From NCBI RefSeq assembly GCF_036507355.1, contig NZ_AP027877.1: a stretch of DNA of 64,000 nt. One strand, given 5' to 3'. A program made the translations under genes and the position numbers. The notes under the pieces were generated by a model. It had not been told where the DNA came from. It was given only the letters and a program-made list of their open reading frames with translations, and did not search any database. The DNA comes from Escherichia coli (lineage in GTDB: Bacteria > Pseudomonadota > Gammaproteobacteria > Enterobacterales > Enterobacteriaceae). Numbering within the stretch: the stretch's first letter is position 1; the number at the start of each line of letters is the position of its first letter. This document shows positions 5,372-63,685 of this stretch, piece by piece.

Positions 5372-5461
5372 TTTTACAGCTGTTAAACCAAACGGTTATA
5401 ACCTGGTCATACTGCAGTAGTTCGGACAAGCGGTACATTTTAATAATTTAGGGGTTTATTG

Positions 5462-6283
5462 ATGAGCGATATGCACTCGCTGCTGATAGCGGCAATATTG
5501 GGTGTGGTCGAAGGATTGACAGAATTTCTGCCGGTATCCAGCACGGGCCATATGATTATTGTCGGTCACTTGTTGGGGTTTGAGGGCGACACGGCGAAAA
5601 CCTTTGAAGTTGTGATCCAGTTAGGATCAATTCTGGCGGTAGTAGTGATGTTCTGGCGGCGTCTGTTTGGCCTGATTGGCATCCACTTTGGCCGCCCGTT
5701 GCAGCACGAAGGTGAAAGCAAAGGTCGTTTAACGCTGATCCACATTTTGCTGGGGATGATTCCGGCGGTGGTACTGGGGCTGTTGTTCCACGACACGATT
5801 AAGTCATTGTTTAACCCGATAAATGTGATGTATGCGCTGGTCGTTGGCGGTTTGTTGCTGATTGCCGCCGAATGCCTGAAGCCGAAAGAGCCGCGTGCGC
5901 CGGGTCTTGATGATATGACCTATCGTCAGGCGTTTATGATTGGCTGTTTCCAGTGTCTGGCGCTGTGGCCGGGTTTCTCCCGTTCTGGGGCGACCATTTC
6001 AGGTGGGATGCTGATGGGGGTGAGCCGTTACGCTGCTTCCGAGTTTTCGTTCCTGCTGGCGGTGCCGATGATGATGGGCGCAACGGCGCTCGATCTCTAC
6101 AAAAGCTGGGGCTTCCTGACAAGCGGCGATATCCCGATGTTTGCCGTTGGGTTTATCACCGCTTTTGTGGTGGCGCTGATAGCGATTAAAACCTTCCTGC
6201 AATTGATTAAGCGCATTTCGTTTATCCCGTTCGCCATTTATCGCTTTATTGTGGCGGCTGCGGTGTATGTCGTGTTCTTTTGA
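5462..6283 (+). CDS. uppP: Undecaprenyl-diphosphate phosphatase (BacA/UppP)
   Basis: ORF 5459..6283; 273-aa polytopic membrane protein, BacA family. Confidence 0.9.
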
Positions 6284-6289
6284 TTGAGG

Positions 6290-6372
6290 AATAGTGTCGG
6301 ATGCCTGGCGTTGTCCAAGATTGCGTAGGCCGAATAAGGCGTTCACGCCGCATCCGGCAAAATGCCCAATAC
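6290..6372. repeat. REP (repetitive extragenic palindromic) element
   Basis: gccggatgcggcgtgaacgccttattcggcctac-type palindromic unit between uppP and cca. Confidence 0.7.
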
Positions 6373-7611
6373 TCATTCAGGCTTTGGGCAACGTTGTTCC
6401 TTCCAGCTGGCTACCGCCGCAATCCGCCGTCGGGTCAGCTCCTCGCGAATCTCCACACCTTTAAATCCCGCTTCAACGACGGCTTTTGTCGGCACTGACT
6501 GCGCCACTTCCCAGGCTTCGCGCAACCAACGGCCTTGCGGGTAGTCCGCTGATTCAAAACCGGTTCTGCCGCGCACGTCAGCCTCGCTGGTCAGCGCCAG
6601 TTGCTCGACACGCTGCGGTTTACGCCAGGCATCGATGGAATCAAATAATTTGACGATGGTTTTTGGGTTCAGCATTGGGAAGGTGTGGATGAGATCGTGA
6701 AACTCAGCCACCAGTCTGGCTAAATCGCGAATTTCATTTGGCACGCGCAGACGCTGGCATAGTTGTTCCACTAACTTAACACCCGCCGGGCCATGACCAT
6801 GATGACGCGGCCAGAGTTCTGGCGGCGTCAGTCCTTTACCGAGATCGTGGCATAAAGTTGCGAAACGGACATCGACCTGCGGACTCAGCATCGCCGCCAT
6901 TGAGAGCGTCATTAAGGTATGAATACCCGTGTCGATTTCCGGATGCCACTTGGCAGGGGCCGGAACACCAAACAGGGCGTCAATTTCCGGGAATAAAACG
7001 CGCAGTGCGCCGCAATCGCGCAGTACCTGGAAGAACACCTGTGGATTGCGGGTGGTGAGGGCGTTTTCTGTCTCTTTCCATACCCGTTCAGGCGTCAGGT
7101 GTTCCAGTTCACCCGCATGGGTCATCTCGCGCATCAACGCCAGAGTTTCATCGGCAATACGAAAACCGAGGTGGGCATAACGCGCAGCAAAACGCGCCAC
7201 GCGCAATACGCGTAACGGATCTTCGCCAAAAGCGGGGGAAACATGGCGCAACAGACGATTTTGCAGATCGCCCAGACCGTTGTACGGGTCGATAATCTCG
7301 CCGTTATCGTCCTGGGCCAGCGCATTAATGGTCAGATCGCGACGCTTAAGATCATCTTCCAGCGTGACATCCGGTGCGGCATAGCAGGTAAAACCGGTGT
7401 AACCGGAGCCGGATTTCCGTTCGGTACGTGCCAGCGCATACTCTTCATGCGTTTGCGGATGCAGAAACACAGGAAAATCGCGGCCTACCTGCTGGTAGCC
7501 CGCGTCGAGCATCTCCTGTGGCGTAGTGCCGACCACTACCCAATCTCTGTCTTTGACCGGTAGCCCTAACAATGCATCCCGAACAGCACCACCGACCAGA
7601 TAAATCTTCAC
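6373..7611 (-). CDS. cca: CCA-adding tRNA nucleotidyltransferase
   Basis: 412-aa ORF, N-terminal GG.VRD nucleotidyltransferase motif and HD domain (LCHDLGKG). Confidence 0.92.
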
Positions 7612-14182: not shown

Positions 14183-14261
14183 CCGGAAAGCGGTTCACAG
14201 ATCTCGCTTCGTACATGGCAGGCCTATTGACGCTGTTGTTTTTTCAACCTAGAGTAAAGGA

Positions 14262-14410
14262 ACAAGGGTAAGGGAGGATTTCTCCCCCCTCTGATGAGTT
14301 GTTAGTAAGTCGGGAAACTTAACAGTAACAACACAACCAGTATGATGACGAGCTTCATCATAACCCTTTCCTTCTATAAGGCCCCTTCCTCGGGAGGGGC
14401 TTTCCCGTTT
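14262..14410 (+). ncRNA. sibE: Sib-family antisense sRNA (antitoxin), copy proximal to hldE
   Basis: Promoter TTGACG(14227-32)-17 bp-TAGAGT(14250-55); terminator hairpin gcccctTcc/ggaggggc + U-tract at 14380-14410; fully antisense to the ibs ORF; ends approximate; D/E naming by synteny only. Confidence 0.7.
14302..14361 (-). CDS. ibsE: Ibs-family type I toxin, 19 aa (MMKLVIILVVLLLLSFPTY)
   Basis: Hand-translated minus-strand ORF, ATG 14361 to TAA 14302-04; hydrophobic 19-mer typical of Ibs; below ORF-track size cut-off. Confidence 0.75.
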   Translation of the reverse strand: MMKLVIILVVLLLLSFPTY

Positions 14411-14637
14411 CAGCCCCTTGCTGTCTCCCCGATTGTTGATGAGCGCCGGACCCCGCGCAACGCTTTCCCTGAAGCAGTTTTGCCTTCCCCGAGCGGTCAC
14501 GCAAAACGCTGCAACGTCCTGAGCATTTGCACCTTTTAGCGGAACGCAGATATAAAAAATCCCCGGCTTTTTGGGCCAGGGATATGTGTTAATGAAACCT
14601 TCTTGACGCTGATTTTTTTTCAACCTAAAGTAAAGGA

Positions 14638-14786
14638 ACAAGGGTGAGGGAGGATTTCTCCCCCCTCTGATTGGCTGTTAATAAGCTGCGAAACTTACGA
14701 GTAACAACACAATCAGTATGATGACGAGCTTCATCATAACCCTTTCCTTCTGTAAGGCCCCTTCCTCGGGAGGGGCTTTCCCGTTT
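14638..14786 (+). ncRNA. sibD: Sib-family antisense sRNA (antitoxin), copy proximal to yqiK
   Basis: Promoter TTGACG(14603-08)-17 bp-TAAAGT(14626-31); same terminator hairpin at 14756-14786; antisense to second ibs ORF. Confidence 0.7.
14678..14737 (-). CDS. ibsD: Ibs-family type I toxin, 19 aa (MMKLVIILIVLLLVSFAAY)
   Basis: Hand-translated minus-strand ORF, ATG 14737 to TAA 14678-80; paralog of the copy at 14302..14361. Confidence 0.75.
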   Translation of the reverse strand: MMKLVIILIVLLLVSFAAY

Positions 14787-14929
14787 CAGCCCTTTGCTGA
14801 CTCCCCGATTGTTGATGAGCGCCGGACCTCGCGCAACGCTTTCCCTGAAGCAGTTTTGCCTTCCCCGAGCAGTCACGCAAAACGCTGCAACAGCCTGATC
14901 ATTTGCACCTTTTAGCGGAACGCAGATAT

Positions 14930-16637: not shown

Positions 16638-17298
16638 TATTAAATTTCCTTTTGATTAATAAATTACAATATTTGGGGCCAGGGATTGTTTTCCGCCAAA
16701 TATCGCGTTGCAGAAAGTCGGCAAATAATTAACACTTTGTCTCCTTTAGTGAAAATTTTTCCTTCTTCAGGCTCCAGTAGTAAATAATGTATTTGGCCAA
16801 ATTGATCGGTGAGTTTTCCTTCGCAGGGATTACCTGAAGTGGCTTGATGACCGGTAATTAATGCCATGCTACCAATATATTCTTCTTCTGTAATAGCTGA
16901 ACTATGGTCGCGTGGAATCCAGGGCGCAACTATTTTACCGGTATAATGCACCGCAATAATCGTAAACAGTAAACTGACAGGAACCACGAACAGGTTCGAC
17001 AGTGGTGATTGCCAGACCATGATGCAGGCATGCTGCAACAGGATGCCAATAAGACCAAAAAAACCAGCCAGCAAGCAGAGAACGACGAGAGCTGGCAATC
17101 TTCCGATATTGAGATAATGAAGTGCCTGGCTAATATGACCTGTGGTTATGGAATCATAATGGTCAAGATGTGCATCAAGAGCACCGGAGAGCATGTGACC
17201 GCAGATAAGCGCTAAAATTTCTAAAAGGCCGATCAACAGTACAGGTGATGCTGCCAACTTACTGATTTAGTGTATGATGGTGTTTTTGAGGTGCTCCA

Positions 17299-17574
17299 GT
17301 GGCTTCTGTTTCTATCAGCTGTCCCTCCTGTTCAGCTACTGACGGGGTGGTGCGTAACGGCAAAAGCACCGCCGGACATCAGCGCTATCTCTGCTCTCAC
17401 TGCCGTAAAACATGGCAACTGCAGTTCACTTACACCGCTTCTCAACCCGGTACGCACCAGAAAATCATTGATATGGCCATGAATGGCGTTGGATGCCGGG
17501 CAACAGCCCGCATTATGGGCGTTGGCCTCAACACGATTTTACGTCACTTAAAAAACTCAGGCCGCAGTCGGTAA
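17299..17574 (+). CDS. insA: IS1 InsA (transposition repressor, zinc-finger/HTH)
   Basis: 91 aa, [40 protein letters not shown]... Confidence 0.95.
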
Positions 17575-17996
17575 CCTCGCGCATACAGCCGGGCAGTGAC
17601 GTCATCGTCTGCGCGGAAATGGACGAACAGTGGGGCTATGTCGGGGCTAAATCGCGCCAGCGCTGGCTGTTTTACGCGTATGACAGGCTCCGGAAGACGG
17701 TTGTTGCGCACGTATTCGGTGAACGCACGATGGCGACGCTGGGGCGTCTTATGAGCCTGCTGTCACCCTTTGACGTGGTGATATGGATGACGGATGGCTG
17801 GCCGCTGTATGAATCCCGCCTGAAGGGAAAGCTGCACGTAATCAGCAAGCGATATACGCAGCGAATTGAGCGGCATAACCTGAATCTGAGGCAGCACCTG
17901 GCACGGCTGGGACGGAAGTCGCTGTCGTTCTCAAAATCGGTGGAGCTGCATGACAAAGTCATCGGGCATTATCTGAACATAAAACACTATCAATAA
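17493..17996 (+). CDS. insB: IS1 InsB' frame (made as InsAB' transposase by -1 frameshift)
   Basis: 167-aa ORF in the -1 frame relative to insA; A6C slippery motif at 17550-17556. Confidence 0.9.
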
Positions 17997-18989: not shown

Positions 18990-19247
18990 GAATCCGCTTA
19001 TTCTCAGGGCGGGGCGAAATTCCCCACCGGCGGTAAATCAACTCAGTTGAAAGCCCGCGAGCGCTTTGGGTGCGAACTCAAAGGACAGCAGATCCGGTGT
19101 AATTCCGGGGCCGACGGTTAGAGTCCGGATGGGAGAGAGTAACGATTCTGTCGGGCATGGACCCGCTCACGTTATTTTGGCTATATGCCGCCACTCCTAA
19201 GACTGCCCTGATTCTGGTAACCATAATTTTAGTGAGGTTTTTTTACC
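18990..19247 (+). promoter_or_regulatory. ribB 5' leader with FMN riboswitch (RFN element / sroG)
   Basis: Conserved RFN segments aggGCGGGGCGAAATTCCCCACCGGCGGTAAA ... GCCCGCGAGCGC ... CAGCAGATCCGGTGTAATTCCGGGGCCGACGGT ... AGTCCGGATGGGAGAGAG directly upstream of ribB; ends approximate. Confidence 0.8.
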
Positions 19248-45582: not shown

Positions 45583-45686
45583 ACGTTCCTCCTTTATATG
45601 AACTCACCGGAGCAGGCTCCGGTGAGGTGTTGTGAACTTAAGTCTGGACGAAATGCCCGAAAACGAAAGTTTGAGGCGTAAAAAGC

Positions 45687-50961: not shown

Positions 50962-51387
50962 ATGGCAATGCATCTTAACGAAAACCTCGACGATAACGGC
51001 GAAATGCATGATATCAACGTGACGCCGTTTATCGACGTGATGTTGGTTCTGCTGATTATCTTTATGGTGGCGGCACCGTTAGCGACGGTAGATGTGAAGG
51101 TTAACTTGCCTGCTTCTACCAGCACGCCGCAGCCGCGCCCGGAAAAACCGGTTTATCTGTCGGTGAAGGCAGACAACTCGATGTTTATCGGTAACGATCC
51201 GGTCACCGATGAAACAATGATTACGGCGTTGAATGCGTTAACCGAAGGTAAGAAAGACACCACCATCTTCTTCCGAGCGGACAAAACCGTCGATTACGAG
51301 ACGTTGATGAAGGTAATGGATACGCTGCATCAGGCGGGTTATCTGAAGATAGGCCTGGTCGGCGAAGAAACCGCTAAAGCGAAGTAA
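50962..51387 (+). CDS. exbD: TonB-system energizer ExbD
   Basis: 141 aa, single N-terminal TM helix. Confidence 0.95.
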   Translation: MAMHLNENLDDNGEMHDINVTPFIDVMLVLLIIFMVAAPLATVDVKVNLPASTSTPQPRPEKPVYLSVKADNSMFIGNDPVTDETMITALNALTEGKKDTTIFFRADKTVDYETLMKVMDTLHQAGYLKIGLVGEETAKAK

Positions 51388-51396
51388 AGTAGAATT

Positions 51397-51615
51397 GCCT
51401 GATGCGCTACGCTCATCAGGCCTACAAAATCTATTGCAACATGTTGAATCTTCGTGCGTTTGTAGGCCGGATAAGGCGTTCACGCCGCATCCGGCATTAG
51501 GTGCTCAATGCCTGATGCGCTACGCTTATCAGGCCTACAAAATCTATTGCAACATGTTGAATCTTCATGCGTTTGTAGGCGGATAAGGCGTTTTCGCCAC
51601 ATCAGGTAAGAGTGA
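51397..51615. repeat. BIME-type REP cluster: two tandem ~113-bp units
   Basis: gcctgatgcgctacgctYatcaggcctacaaaatctattgcaacatgttgaatcttcRtgcgtttgtaggc... repeated at 51397 and 51510. Confidence 0.85.
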
Positions 51616-51625
51616 ATTCACAATG

Positions 51626-51662
51626 ATGCCCGGTTGCTTTTCACAACCGGGCATTTTTTTAA
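51626..51662. terminator. Bidirectional terminator between exbD and yghA
   Basis: atgcccggttg/caaccgggcat hairpin followed by T7; overlaps the yghA stop codon. Confidence 0.75.
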
Positions 51663-52543
51663 CCTAAATGCTCGCCGCCGCACACGCCGTGCACTTCTGC
51701 GGTGACGTAGCTCGACTCCTGACTTGCCAGATAAACATATACAGGGGCCAGTTCCGCCGGTTGCCCCGCACGCTTCATCGGCGTTTTCTGACCAAACTGC
51801 GGGATCTTATCCTGCGTTTGTCCGCCGGAAATTTGCAGTGCTGTCCAGATCGGGCCTGGCGCGACAATATTCACCCGAATACCTTTCTCTGCGACCTGTT
51901 TTGCCAGGCCACGGCTGTAGTTCAGAATTGCCGCCTTCGTAGCTGCATAGTCCAGTAAATGCGGGCTTGGCTGGTATGCCTGGATTGACGAAGTGGTGAT
52001 GATACTTGCACCTTTCGGTAGCAGGGGTATCGCTTCCTGGGTTAGCCAGAACAGTGCGAAAACGTTAATGGCAAAGGTCTTTTGAAACTGTTCGCTGGTG
52101 AGGTCTGCAATATCAGGAATGGCAACCTGTTTCCCGGCGACCAGCGCCATAATATCCAGCCCACCTAAGGCCTTATGCGCTTCGTGAACCAGCGAACGGG
52201 CAAATTTCTCATCGCTTAAATCGCCTGGCAGCAGAACGGCTTTGCGTCCGCATTCTTCAATGATCTTTTTCACATCCTGAGCGTCTTCTTCTTCTACGGG
52301 AAGATAACTGATCGCCACGTCAGCCCCTTCACGCGCGTAAGCGATGGCGGCAGCGCGACCGATTCCGGAATCGCCCCCTGTCACCAGGGCTTTACGATCT
52401 TTCAGGCGACCGCTACCAACATAGGTTTTCTCGCCGCAATCCGGTACCGGTGTCATCTTCGCCTGGATGCCTGGCGTCGGTTGTTTCTGTTTGGGATATT
52501 CACCAGTGTAATACTGCGTGGTCGGGTCTTTTAAATGAGACAT
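51659..52543 (-). CDS. yghA: Short-chain dehydrogenase/reductase
   Basis: 294 aa; [10 protein letters not shown] Rossmann motif. Confidence 0.9.
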
Positions 52544-62243: not shown

Positions 62244-62492
62244 ATGTGTATTGGCGTTCCAGGCCAGGTGCTGGCTGTCGGTGAAGATATTCACCAGCTT
62301 GCGCAGGTTGAAGTATGTGGTATCAAGCGCGACGTGAATATCGCCCTGATTTGTGAAGGTAACCCTGCCGATCTACTGGGCCAGTGGGTGCTGGTACACG
62401 TCGGATTTGCCATGAGCATCATCGACGAAGATGAAGCCAAAGCCACATTAGACGCACTGCGCCAAATGGATTACGACATTACCAGCGCGTGA
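62244..62492 (+). CDS. hybG: Hydrogenase maturation chaperone (HypC paralog)
   Basis: 82 aa beginning MCIGVPGQV. Confidence 0.92.
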
Positions 62493-62499
62493 TGATTAG

Positions 62500-62610
62500 C
62501 TTTCGTAGGTCTGATAAGACGCGGCAGCGTCGCATCAGGCATTGTGCTCGATTGCCGGATGCGGCGTGAACGCCTTATCCGGCCTGGATGGCTTGCTGCG
62601 ACGAACGCTA
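62500..62610. repeat. REP element(s) between hybG and yghU
   Basis: gtaggtctgataagacgcggcagcgtcgcatcaggc and gccggatgcggcgtgaacgccttatccggcc palindromic units. Confidence 0.75.
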
Positions 62611-62614
62611 ACCC

Positions 62615-63481
62615 TTACCCCTGACGCTTATCTTCCGTATTCGTCTCAAAATCACTGGCGTCATGGCGCTCATGCAACTGCTCGTTCAGCGGCCCGTTGG
62701 TGCGGTTAACAATACGCCCACGTTTCACCGCCGGACGTTCGCCCACTTCTTTTGCCCAGCGTTGCACATGCTTATAACTGCCCGCATCAAGAAACTCTGC
62801 GGCATCATATACGCCGCCTAATACCACATTGCCAAACCACGGCCAAATCGCCATATCCGCAATGGTGTACTCATCGCCCGCAACAAACTTATGCTGCGCC
62901 AGTTGCTTATCCAGCACGTCGAGCAGACGTTTGGCTTCCATGGTAAAGCGATTGATGGCGTACTCAATTTTCACCGGCGCGTAATGGTAAAAGTGACCAA
63001 AACCACCGCCGAGGAACGGCGCGGCACCCTGTAGCCAGAACAGCCAGTTCATTGCTTCAGTACGTTTAGCCAGATCCTGCGGCAAGAAGTAGCCAAATTT
63101 TTCTGCCAGATAAAGCAGGATCGAACCAGACTCAAACACGCGGATCGGCGGATTATGCGTATGATCGCGCAGCGCCGGGATCTTCGAGTTTGGGTTCACT
63201 TCGACAAAGCCGCTGGAGAATTGATCGCCATCGCCTATGCGTATCAGCCAGGCGTCGTACTCTGCACCAGTAACGCCCAGCGCCAGCAGCTCCTCAAGCA
63301 TAATCGTTACTTTCTGACCGTTCGGCGTTCCCAGCGAATAAAGTTGCAATGGATGTTTGCCAACGGGCAGCGTTTTTTCATGCGTCGGACCAGAAACCGG
63401 GCGATTGATATTGGCGAACGCGCCGCCAGCGGATTTATCCCACGTCCAGACTTTCGCGGGCTGATAAGTATTGTCTGTCAT
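62615..63481 (-). CDS. yghU: Glutathione S-transferase-like disulfide reductase (Nu class)
   Basis: ORF 62615..63529; start at ATG 63481 (MTDNTYQPAKVWTWDKSAGG..., 288 aa). Confidence 0.9.
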   Translation of the reverse strand: MTDNTYQPAKVWTWDKSAGGAFANINRPVSGPTHEKTLPVGKHPLQLYSLGTPNGQKVTIMLEELLALGVTGAEYDAWLIRIGDGDQFSSGFVEVNPNSKIPALRDHTHNPPIRVFESGSILLYLAEKFGYFLPQDLAKRTEAMNWLFWLQGAAPFLGGGFGHFYHYAPVKIEYAINRFTMEAKRLLDVLDKQLAQHKFVAGDEYTIADMAIWPWFGNVVLGGVYDAAEFLDAGSYKHVQRWAKEVGERPAVKRGRIVNRTNGPLNEQLHERHDASDFETNTEDKRQG

Positions 63482-63685
63482 AGTGAGTTGCCTTCTGAGT
63501 GGTAGTGTTGAAGCAGTGTAGCAGGTCACTTGCTGTACAGAATGTGAATTTTTTAACCCTTTGCGCCAGCCGCTGCGATGAGGTGTATGATTAGTCTGAC
63601 CTCTGTCCGGTTAATGTCGCTGAGCAGGTAATCAGAGCACAACAATTACGCCAACTGCTTAGGTTGTATTGTTAAAGGTAAAGTG

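Follow-up and report, generated by a model that had tools for sequence, protein, structure and literature searches.

A single y-type REP, left by a 91-bp deletion, as a probable generic 3'-UTR hairpin between the convergent genes uppP and cca in Escherichia coli

The gap between the convergent genes uppP (bacA) and cca in the 64,000-nt stretch of Escherichia coli contig NZ_AP027877.1 analysed here (the window) holds one y-type REP, belonging to the intergenic repeat family that is the most abundant in E. coli, together with the stump of a decayed neighbour. Both the kind of repeat and the locus are already known, K-12 carrying a REP array in the same place; what is new is confined to the allele of this genome, a rare form of the array with 91 bp deleted. 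The best explanation for the element, to which we would assign a probability of roughly 0.6, is that this deletion-derived REP acts as a generic 3'-UTR hairpin blocking exonucleases on both convergent mRNAs. The ordinary arrangement, the polymorphism of the locus and the read-through in K-12 argue against a special role. The coordinates of the features are collected in Table 1.

Table 1. Features of the uppP-cca gap and its borders (positions in the window; a dot marks features given without a strand)
Feature	Position	Strand	Details and basis
uppP (bacA) stop codon, TGA	6281-6283	+	ORF 5459-6283; named bacA in matching E. coli records
Spacer from uppP stop to first pair of composite helix, 11 nt	6284-6294	+	From the sequence; predicted helix of uppP-sense fold starts at 6295
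Composite hairpin (predicted)	6295-6359	.	Left arm of remnant (6295-6304) pairs with right arm of REP (6350-6359)
Decayed z-like REP remnant	6296-6322	+	6-nt deletion and substitutions relative to intact copy; from alignment
y-type REP	6325-6358	-	Consensus reads on minus strand; 33 of 34 bases match
REP's own hairpin (predicted)	6329-6358	.	8 bp, 1x1 mismatch, 4 bp, 4-nt loop
Crossover interval of 91-bp deletion	6345-6360	+	ACGCCGCATCCGGCAA; common to K-12 REP1 and REP3
REP-to-cca-stop spacer	6359-6372	-	14 nt to REP's own stem, 13 nt to composite helix; same in K-12
cca stop codon, TGA on minus strand	6373-6375	-	ORF 6373-7611, 412 aa; named cca in E. coli records

The neighbourhood is of the E. 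coli type (plsY / folB-uppP(bacA) > < cca-ygiM), and the ends of both genes agree with those given by an earlier reading made from the letters alone (the sequence-only reading). Between the two stop codons lie 89 nt (6284-6372), made up in order of the decayed REP remnant, a 2-nt joint, the REP and a spacer. Several small ORFs overlapping the gap (56, 65, 60 and 125 aa) were regarded as fortuitous, lying within the known genes or antisense to them.

On the minus strand the REP reads GCCGGATGCGGCGTGAACGCCTTATTCGGCCTAC, with one mismatch to the y-type consensus GCCGGATGCGGCGTGAACGCCTTATCCGGCCTAC; no match to this consensus arose in 100 dinucleotide-preserving shuffles, giving an expectation of 0 by chance. 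The window contains three copies of the consensus, the other two being at 51462-51495 and 62554-62587, and the K-12 array used as a query matches at a median of 28 places in each E. coli genome. REPs are characterised by a length of 30-40 nt, by a GTAG tetranucleotide at the stem foot and by an imperfect palindrome whose stem contains a mismatch (Ton-Hoang et al., PMC3333891). Each of these is seen here in an element that is also extragenic and multi-copy: the GTAG occupies 6325-6328 on the plus strand directly before the first base of the stem, the element is 34 nt long, and its palindrome is interrupted by a stem mismatch. The assignment of a REP to this gap by the sequence-only reading is therefore borne out. 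Its delimitation requires correction, since it had taken 6290-6372 as one REP ending at the base before the cca stop codon and directly abutting it. That span is essentially the entire gap, comprising remnant, joint, REP and spacer, and the last base of the consensus is 6358 (6359 if the flanking T/A is included), so that 13-14 non-REP bases (AAATGCCCAATAC plus one) precede the cca stop. The spacer lies outside the repeat and reads U plus UUUACGGGUUAUG in the cca sense and AAAATGCCCAATAC on the plus strand. With the coordinates and the claim of abutment thus corrected, the position and spacing of the element are typical of the REP family.

Alignment of the remnant with the intact sequence GTCGGATATGACGC...GCGTCTTATCCGAC of strains ZJ3920, BEC1 and 315 identified it as a decayed copy of a REP-like palindrome, which in other strains occupies this position intact as GTCGGATATGACGCTTGTGCGTCTTATCCGAC. 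The decayed state, with a 6-nt deletion and several substitutions, is common to the window and K-12. In comparison with shuffles the remnant has no hairpin of its own (-5.4 kcal/mol, z +0.59). An Rfam scan at the gathering threshold recovered no match in the gap, and a relaxed scan recovered a match of a single-hairpin half-unit to naRNA4 (RF02564), at 36.5 bits against a gathering score of 59.5; the two complete naRNA4 units found at other places in the window reach 68 and 85 bits. The inverted z2 partner across a short linker that defines BIME-2 is present in the K-12 allele but lacking in the window allele. A degenerate z2 consensus pattern found no match in the window, the pattern being probably over-strict on spacing.

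The two other REP loci of the window have fuller architectures. A four-REP array at 51396-51615, between convergent ORFs at 50962-51387 (+) and 51659-52543 (-), consists of a 72-nt unit repeated at 113-nt spacing, with the first REP 10 nt after the stop codon and an above-threshold naRNA4 match at 51465-51535. The other locus, at 62500-62590, is a complete two-REP BIME unit (naRNA4, 84.8 bits, 62508-62584 on the minus strand); a stop codon at approximately 62489-62491 lies about 12 nt before its start, and its end is 27 nt short of the stop of an ORF at 62615-63529 (-).

Folding of a 39-nt segment gave the REP the structure ((((((((.((((....)))).)))))))), which in cca-sense RNA has a predicted energy of -18.4 kcal/mol (z -3.66, with 0 of 200 shuffles as good) and in uppP-sense RNA -14.0 kcal/mol (z -1.97). 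In longer segments of 71 nt the left arm of the remnant is recruited into a composite hairpin with the right arm of the REP, with energies on the two strands of -28.1 kcal/mol (z -2.67) and -24.0 kcal/mol (z -2.25). Pair probabilities in the composite helix are 0.93-0.99 in the uppP sense and 0.81-0.92 in the cca sense, against 0.01-0.07 for the outer stem of the REP itself. On these models the composite helix, which begins 11 nt past the uppP stop and 13 nt past the cca stop, is predicted to be the dominant structure at equilibrium in read-through RNA from either strand. The stable hairpin expected by the sequence-only reading is thus found both in the REP and in the composite helix, although the signal from the whole region is marginal, its 110-116 nt barely beating shuffles (z -1.1 and -1.2). 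The description of the REP as filling the gap is apt only in the sense that, taken in isolation, the 89 nt can pair from one end to the other in a single imperfect palindrome; the REP proper is confined to its 34 nt. Weak outer pairs of this whole-gap fold reach nucleotide 1 after the uppP stop and nucleotide 4 after the cca stop, and the arms at the gap ends (17 nt) are 76% complementary.

Comparison with K-12 (MG1655 and EPI300) provides considerable clues regarding the origin of the allele. The K-12 gap is 180 nt long (3203130-3203309 in MG1655) and contains, in order, the remnant, REP1 (y), REP2 (z2, inverted), REP3 (y), a 13-nt spacer and the cca stop, the RefSeq K-12 record having no REP feature annotated at the uppP-cca locus. 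In the alignment the window REP follows REP1 up to 6344, where it has C and REP3 has T, and follows the flank of REP3 from 6361 onwards. Together with the stretch shared by REP1 and REP3 between these two points (Table 1), this implies that the window allele is the K-12 allele with 91 bp removed, in agreement with the gap lengths (180 - 89 = 91 nt). On this alignment the 89-nt allele is a 91-bp collapse of the three-REP array through recombination or slippage between direct REPs. The reverse route, amplification from a single REP, is formally possible; it is disfavoured because it would need extra substitutions in REP3 and fits poorly with the distribution of the alleles. Variation between strains in the copy number of tandem BIMEs is a known property of the family (PMC3333891).

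This distribution was surveyed in 5,426 complete E. coli genomes, counting for each allele the genomes with one match covering at least 80% of the allele's query. The K-12-like array of 180 nt, taken together with a four-REP form of 187 nt, is found in about 2,707 genomes; it has three or four REPs, with a REP 13 nt from the cca stop. An 80-nt gap, in about 1,180 genomes, contains only an intact left REP, which begins 12-13 nt past the uppP stop; near cca it has nothing REP-like. A gap of 162 nt, in about 1,260 genomes, carries a different G+C-rich multi-copy repeat (median of 5 places per genome), and its first stable helix lies about 32 nt from the cca stop. In E. coli strain 0-4 (L006 485-646), where this gap was seen, a G+C-rich palindromic repeat ...CCCTCACCCTAACCCTCTCCCCGAAGGGGCGAGGGG... 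replaces the REPs; we take it to resemble the 'Box C'-type intergenic repeats. The 89-nt gap of the window, with its one REP and remnant, was recovered by single-piece matches to a 131-nt query in at least 6 of the 5,426 genomes among the matches listed. At least three SNP backgrounds are represented among its carriers, which differ in the uppP stop (TGA or TAA) and in the remnant (CCACG or CAACG). A 461-nt query matched 7 records at 99% identity or more, and an exact scan for the short-allele junction recovered no instance among the GTDB species representatives. Thus, roughly half of the complete E. coli genomes have a REP near the cca stop and about 45% have none, which implies that whatever the REP does beside this stop codon is dispensable. 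Of 7 aligned sequences, 6 retain the left arm GTCGGAT, situated 12 nt past the uppP stop. The 13-nt spacer to the cca stop is identical in K-12 and retains its length in strain ZJ3920.

Elsewhere in the window, a 300-nt tandem duplication (14227-14526 and 14603-14902, 93% identical) contains a pair of SIB RNA genes, at 14227-14376 and 14603-14752 (Rfam RF00113; 141 and 148 bits), and the region 14227-14902 looks like a Sib/Ibs-type antitoxin RNA pair. An FMN riboswitch (RF00050, 120.9 bits) at 18996-19144 (+) is, from the names of neighbouring genes in E. coli matches, probably the ribB leader. Overlapping IS1-like insA/insB frames of 91 and 167 aa at 17299-17996 (+) adjoin a 197-aa ORF at 16664-17257 (-); at 17243 the alignment with some E. 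coli chromosomes is interrupted, and the initial 20 kb of the window gives matches of at least 99% identity to more than 5,000 plasmids, probably because of the IS1 copy. The best E. coli matches to these 20 kb reach about 97-98% identity and are split into several pieces. An ES173 sRNA match at 45621-45684 (-) scores 99 bits against an Rfam gathering score of 90.

A terminator scan of 6284-6372 recovered no intrinsic site on either strand, and the tails that follow the hairpin, AAAAUGCCC and ACACUAUUCC, contain no U tract; an intrinsic (Rho-independent) terminator was rejected on both grounds. On the K-12 bacA strand a Rho termination region was mapped to NC_000913.3 3202814 (minus), with upstream/downstream counts of 55/11 without and 102/113 with bicyclomycin, a Rho score of 5.5 and p = 1.9e-7 (Adams et al. 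2021, Supplementary file 2). Measured from the cca stop at 3203129, this point is 316 nt into antisense cca, at the equivalent of about 6690 (+) in the window; the implication is that transcripts of the bacA strand pass through the K-12 array and run some 300 nt into antisense cca. The Term-seq tables of Adams 2021 list no curated 3' end at K-12 3203000-3203399, a weak negative in view of the low expression and the difficulty of mapping reads from repeats, and neither the RepRanger paper nor Dar and Sorek 2018 has an entry for cca or bacA in its supplement.

More generally, Rho-dependent transcripts have been found to end just past stable stem-loops without U tracts, 24% of them REPs, which shield the transcripts from PNPase and RNase II (Dar and Sorek 2018, PMC6061677). 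According to a recent preprint (10.64898/2026.03.23.713779), about 60% of REPs lie between convergent genes and 207 of 704 convergent gaps (about 30%) have one. The same preprint reports that both genes of convergent pairs with a REP are more highly expressed, with no global effect on half-life, and that REP325 attenuates transcription and also stabilises the upstream mRNA. In the supplement of the Harris 2026 preprint cca appears only in the differential-expression table and is not significant there. The reading of the element as an exonuclease block is the best supported because of the missing U tract and terminator, the Rho read-through in K-12, the stem-loops of Dar and Sorek and the observations of the 2026 preprint. 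On this model the REP would be transcribed into the 3' UTRs of both convergent genes, and its RNA would fold as a G+C-rich hairpin which, having no U tract, would not halt transcription there in the manner of an intrinsic terminator. Rho would terminate transcription downstream, in K-12 inside antisense cca on the bacA strand, and 3'-to-5' exonucleases would then trim the transcripts back to the hairpin, which might both set and protect the 3' ends of the mRNAs. Given the spacing of 13-14 nt from the cca stop and 11 nt from the uppP stop, the helix may also slightly hinder terminating ribosomes.

The main competitor is that the REP is neutral selfish DNA, a non-autonomous repeat spread by the REP-associated transposase (TnpA-REP/RAYT) that is harmless in a convergent gap and has no function for uppP or cca. 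We consider this somewhat improbable, while recognising that several observations fit it well: the rapid turnover of the locus, with alleles of 80, 89, 162, 180 and 187 nt carrying different repeats; the decay of the adjoining REP; the cleavage and recombination of BIMEs by TnpA-REP, with copy numbers that vary between strains (PMC3333891); and the missing global half-life effect in the 2026 preprint. It is opposed by the genome-wide association of REPs with higher expression of convergent pairs in that preprint, by the retention of the left arm noted above, and by the consideration that a transcribed 3'-UTR hairpin of -18 to -28 kcal/mol would almost unavoidably impede exonucleases. A role in attenuating translation appears less probable still, and we regard it as unlikely. 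It envisages that ribosomes stall at the helix 13-14 nt past the cca stop, with cleavage of the mRNA, rescue by tmRNA and a lowered yield of Cca, and that uppP is affected likewise at 11 nt. As summarised in PMC12306157, Liang et al. 2015 found translational down-regulation by a REP within 15 nt of a stop codon; the spacings on both sides of the gap are within this limit, and the cca spacing thereby makes stalling a possibility here, one for which the constancy of the 13-nt spacer in K-12 and ZJ3920 might also speak. However, by the same summary 260 of 496 REPs conform to the 15-nt rule, so that conforming to it is unremarkable and does not measure the size of an effect. At all three REP loci of the window a stop codon and a REP are 10-14 nt apart, the REPs at about 51398 and 62504 beginning 10-12 nt after such a codon. 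Furthermore, some 45% of strains are without a helix near the cca stop, the first stable helix lying 32-35 nt away in the 162-nt allele and in the 80-nt allele of strain 315. Now tmRNA needs the 3' CCA end that Cca repairs. A stop-proximal helix might conceivably make the synthesis of Cca depend on tmRNA-mediated rescue, forming a small feedback loop by which the alleles would set the Cca levels of lineages; this is a highly speculative idea, and the least probable of those raised here. If it were true, the presence of a REP by the cca stop in about half of the genomes and its absence from about 45% would translate into different Cca levels among E. coli lineages. Of the two roles that the sequence-only reading had proposed, stabilisation of the mRNA and stalling of ribosomes near the stop, both are published roles of REPs, but its premise of direct abutment gives way to the spacing of 13-14 nt.

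The remaining alternatives concern transcription and the DNA itself. The element might be a bidirectional transcription terminator for uppP and cca, in keeping with the 78 REPs that are reported within predicted bidirectional terminators between convergent genes (preprint 10.64898/2026.03.23.713779); in the present gap neither strand offers a U tract or a terminator-like site to the scan, and the distant Rho region in K-12 implies that even the larger array is read through, which makes such a function quite unlikely. A role at the level of the DNA is very improbable; the element would here be bound or cleaved by DNA gyrase, Pol I or HU, and positive supercoiling between the convergent genes would thereby be relieved. 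BIME-2 arrays of y plus z2 are targets of gyrase, as cited in PMC3333891 from its reference 9, and K-12 carries such an array in the form y-z2-y. With its z2 partner gone, the window allele does not make up a BIME unit, as its naRNA4 score of 36.5 against 59.5 bits also indicates, and a gyrase role is less likely for it; moreover, the 2026 study found no role of REPs in chromosome compaction or long-range contacts.

The window allele offers a clean example of a change in BIME copy number that is attributable to recombination between direct REPs. With at least four structurally different alleles across E. coli, the locus might also serve as a natural experiment on the tuning of expression by stop-proximal REPs.

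The element resembles several known systems. With the y-type REP or palindromic unit of E. coli (Stern 1984; Gilson, Bachellier; Ton-Hoang 2012, PMC3333891) the element shares the consensus, the GTAG, the palindrome, the length of 34 nt and the extragenic, convergent and multi-copy placement. It differs from the type in no essential respect, being a singleton only secondarily, through deletion from an array; singletons make up only 84 of the 584 K-12 REPs (PMC3333891). The K-12 uppP(bacA)-cca BIME has in common with it the flanks, the decayed left remnant, the 13-nt spacer and, in REP1, the identical REP sequence, and differs in holding three REPs (y, z2, y) in 180 nt where the window holds one in 89 nt, the missing 91 bp corresponding to one y-z2 period. 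In comparison with BIME-2 and the two-REP unit of Rfam naRNA4, the window retains the y half, whereas the z2 partner is missing or decayed. Stop-proximal REPs that attenuate translation, for which nth is the model (Liang, Rudd and Deutscher 2015, as summarised in PMC12306157), likewise have a helix within 15 nt of the stop codon; for cca the effect is a predicted one. Further parallels are the REP that stabilises malE-malF (Newbury 1987) and the stem-loops of Rho-dependent transcripts (Dar and Sorek 2018), with which the window element shares a stable 3'-UTR hairpin without a U tract and, in K-12, termination by Rho downstream, the hairpin of the window being a predicted protector of 3' ends.
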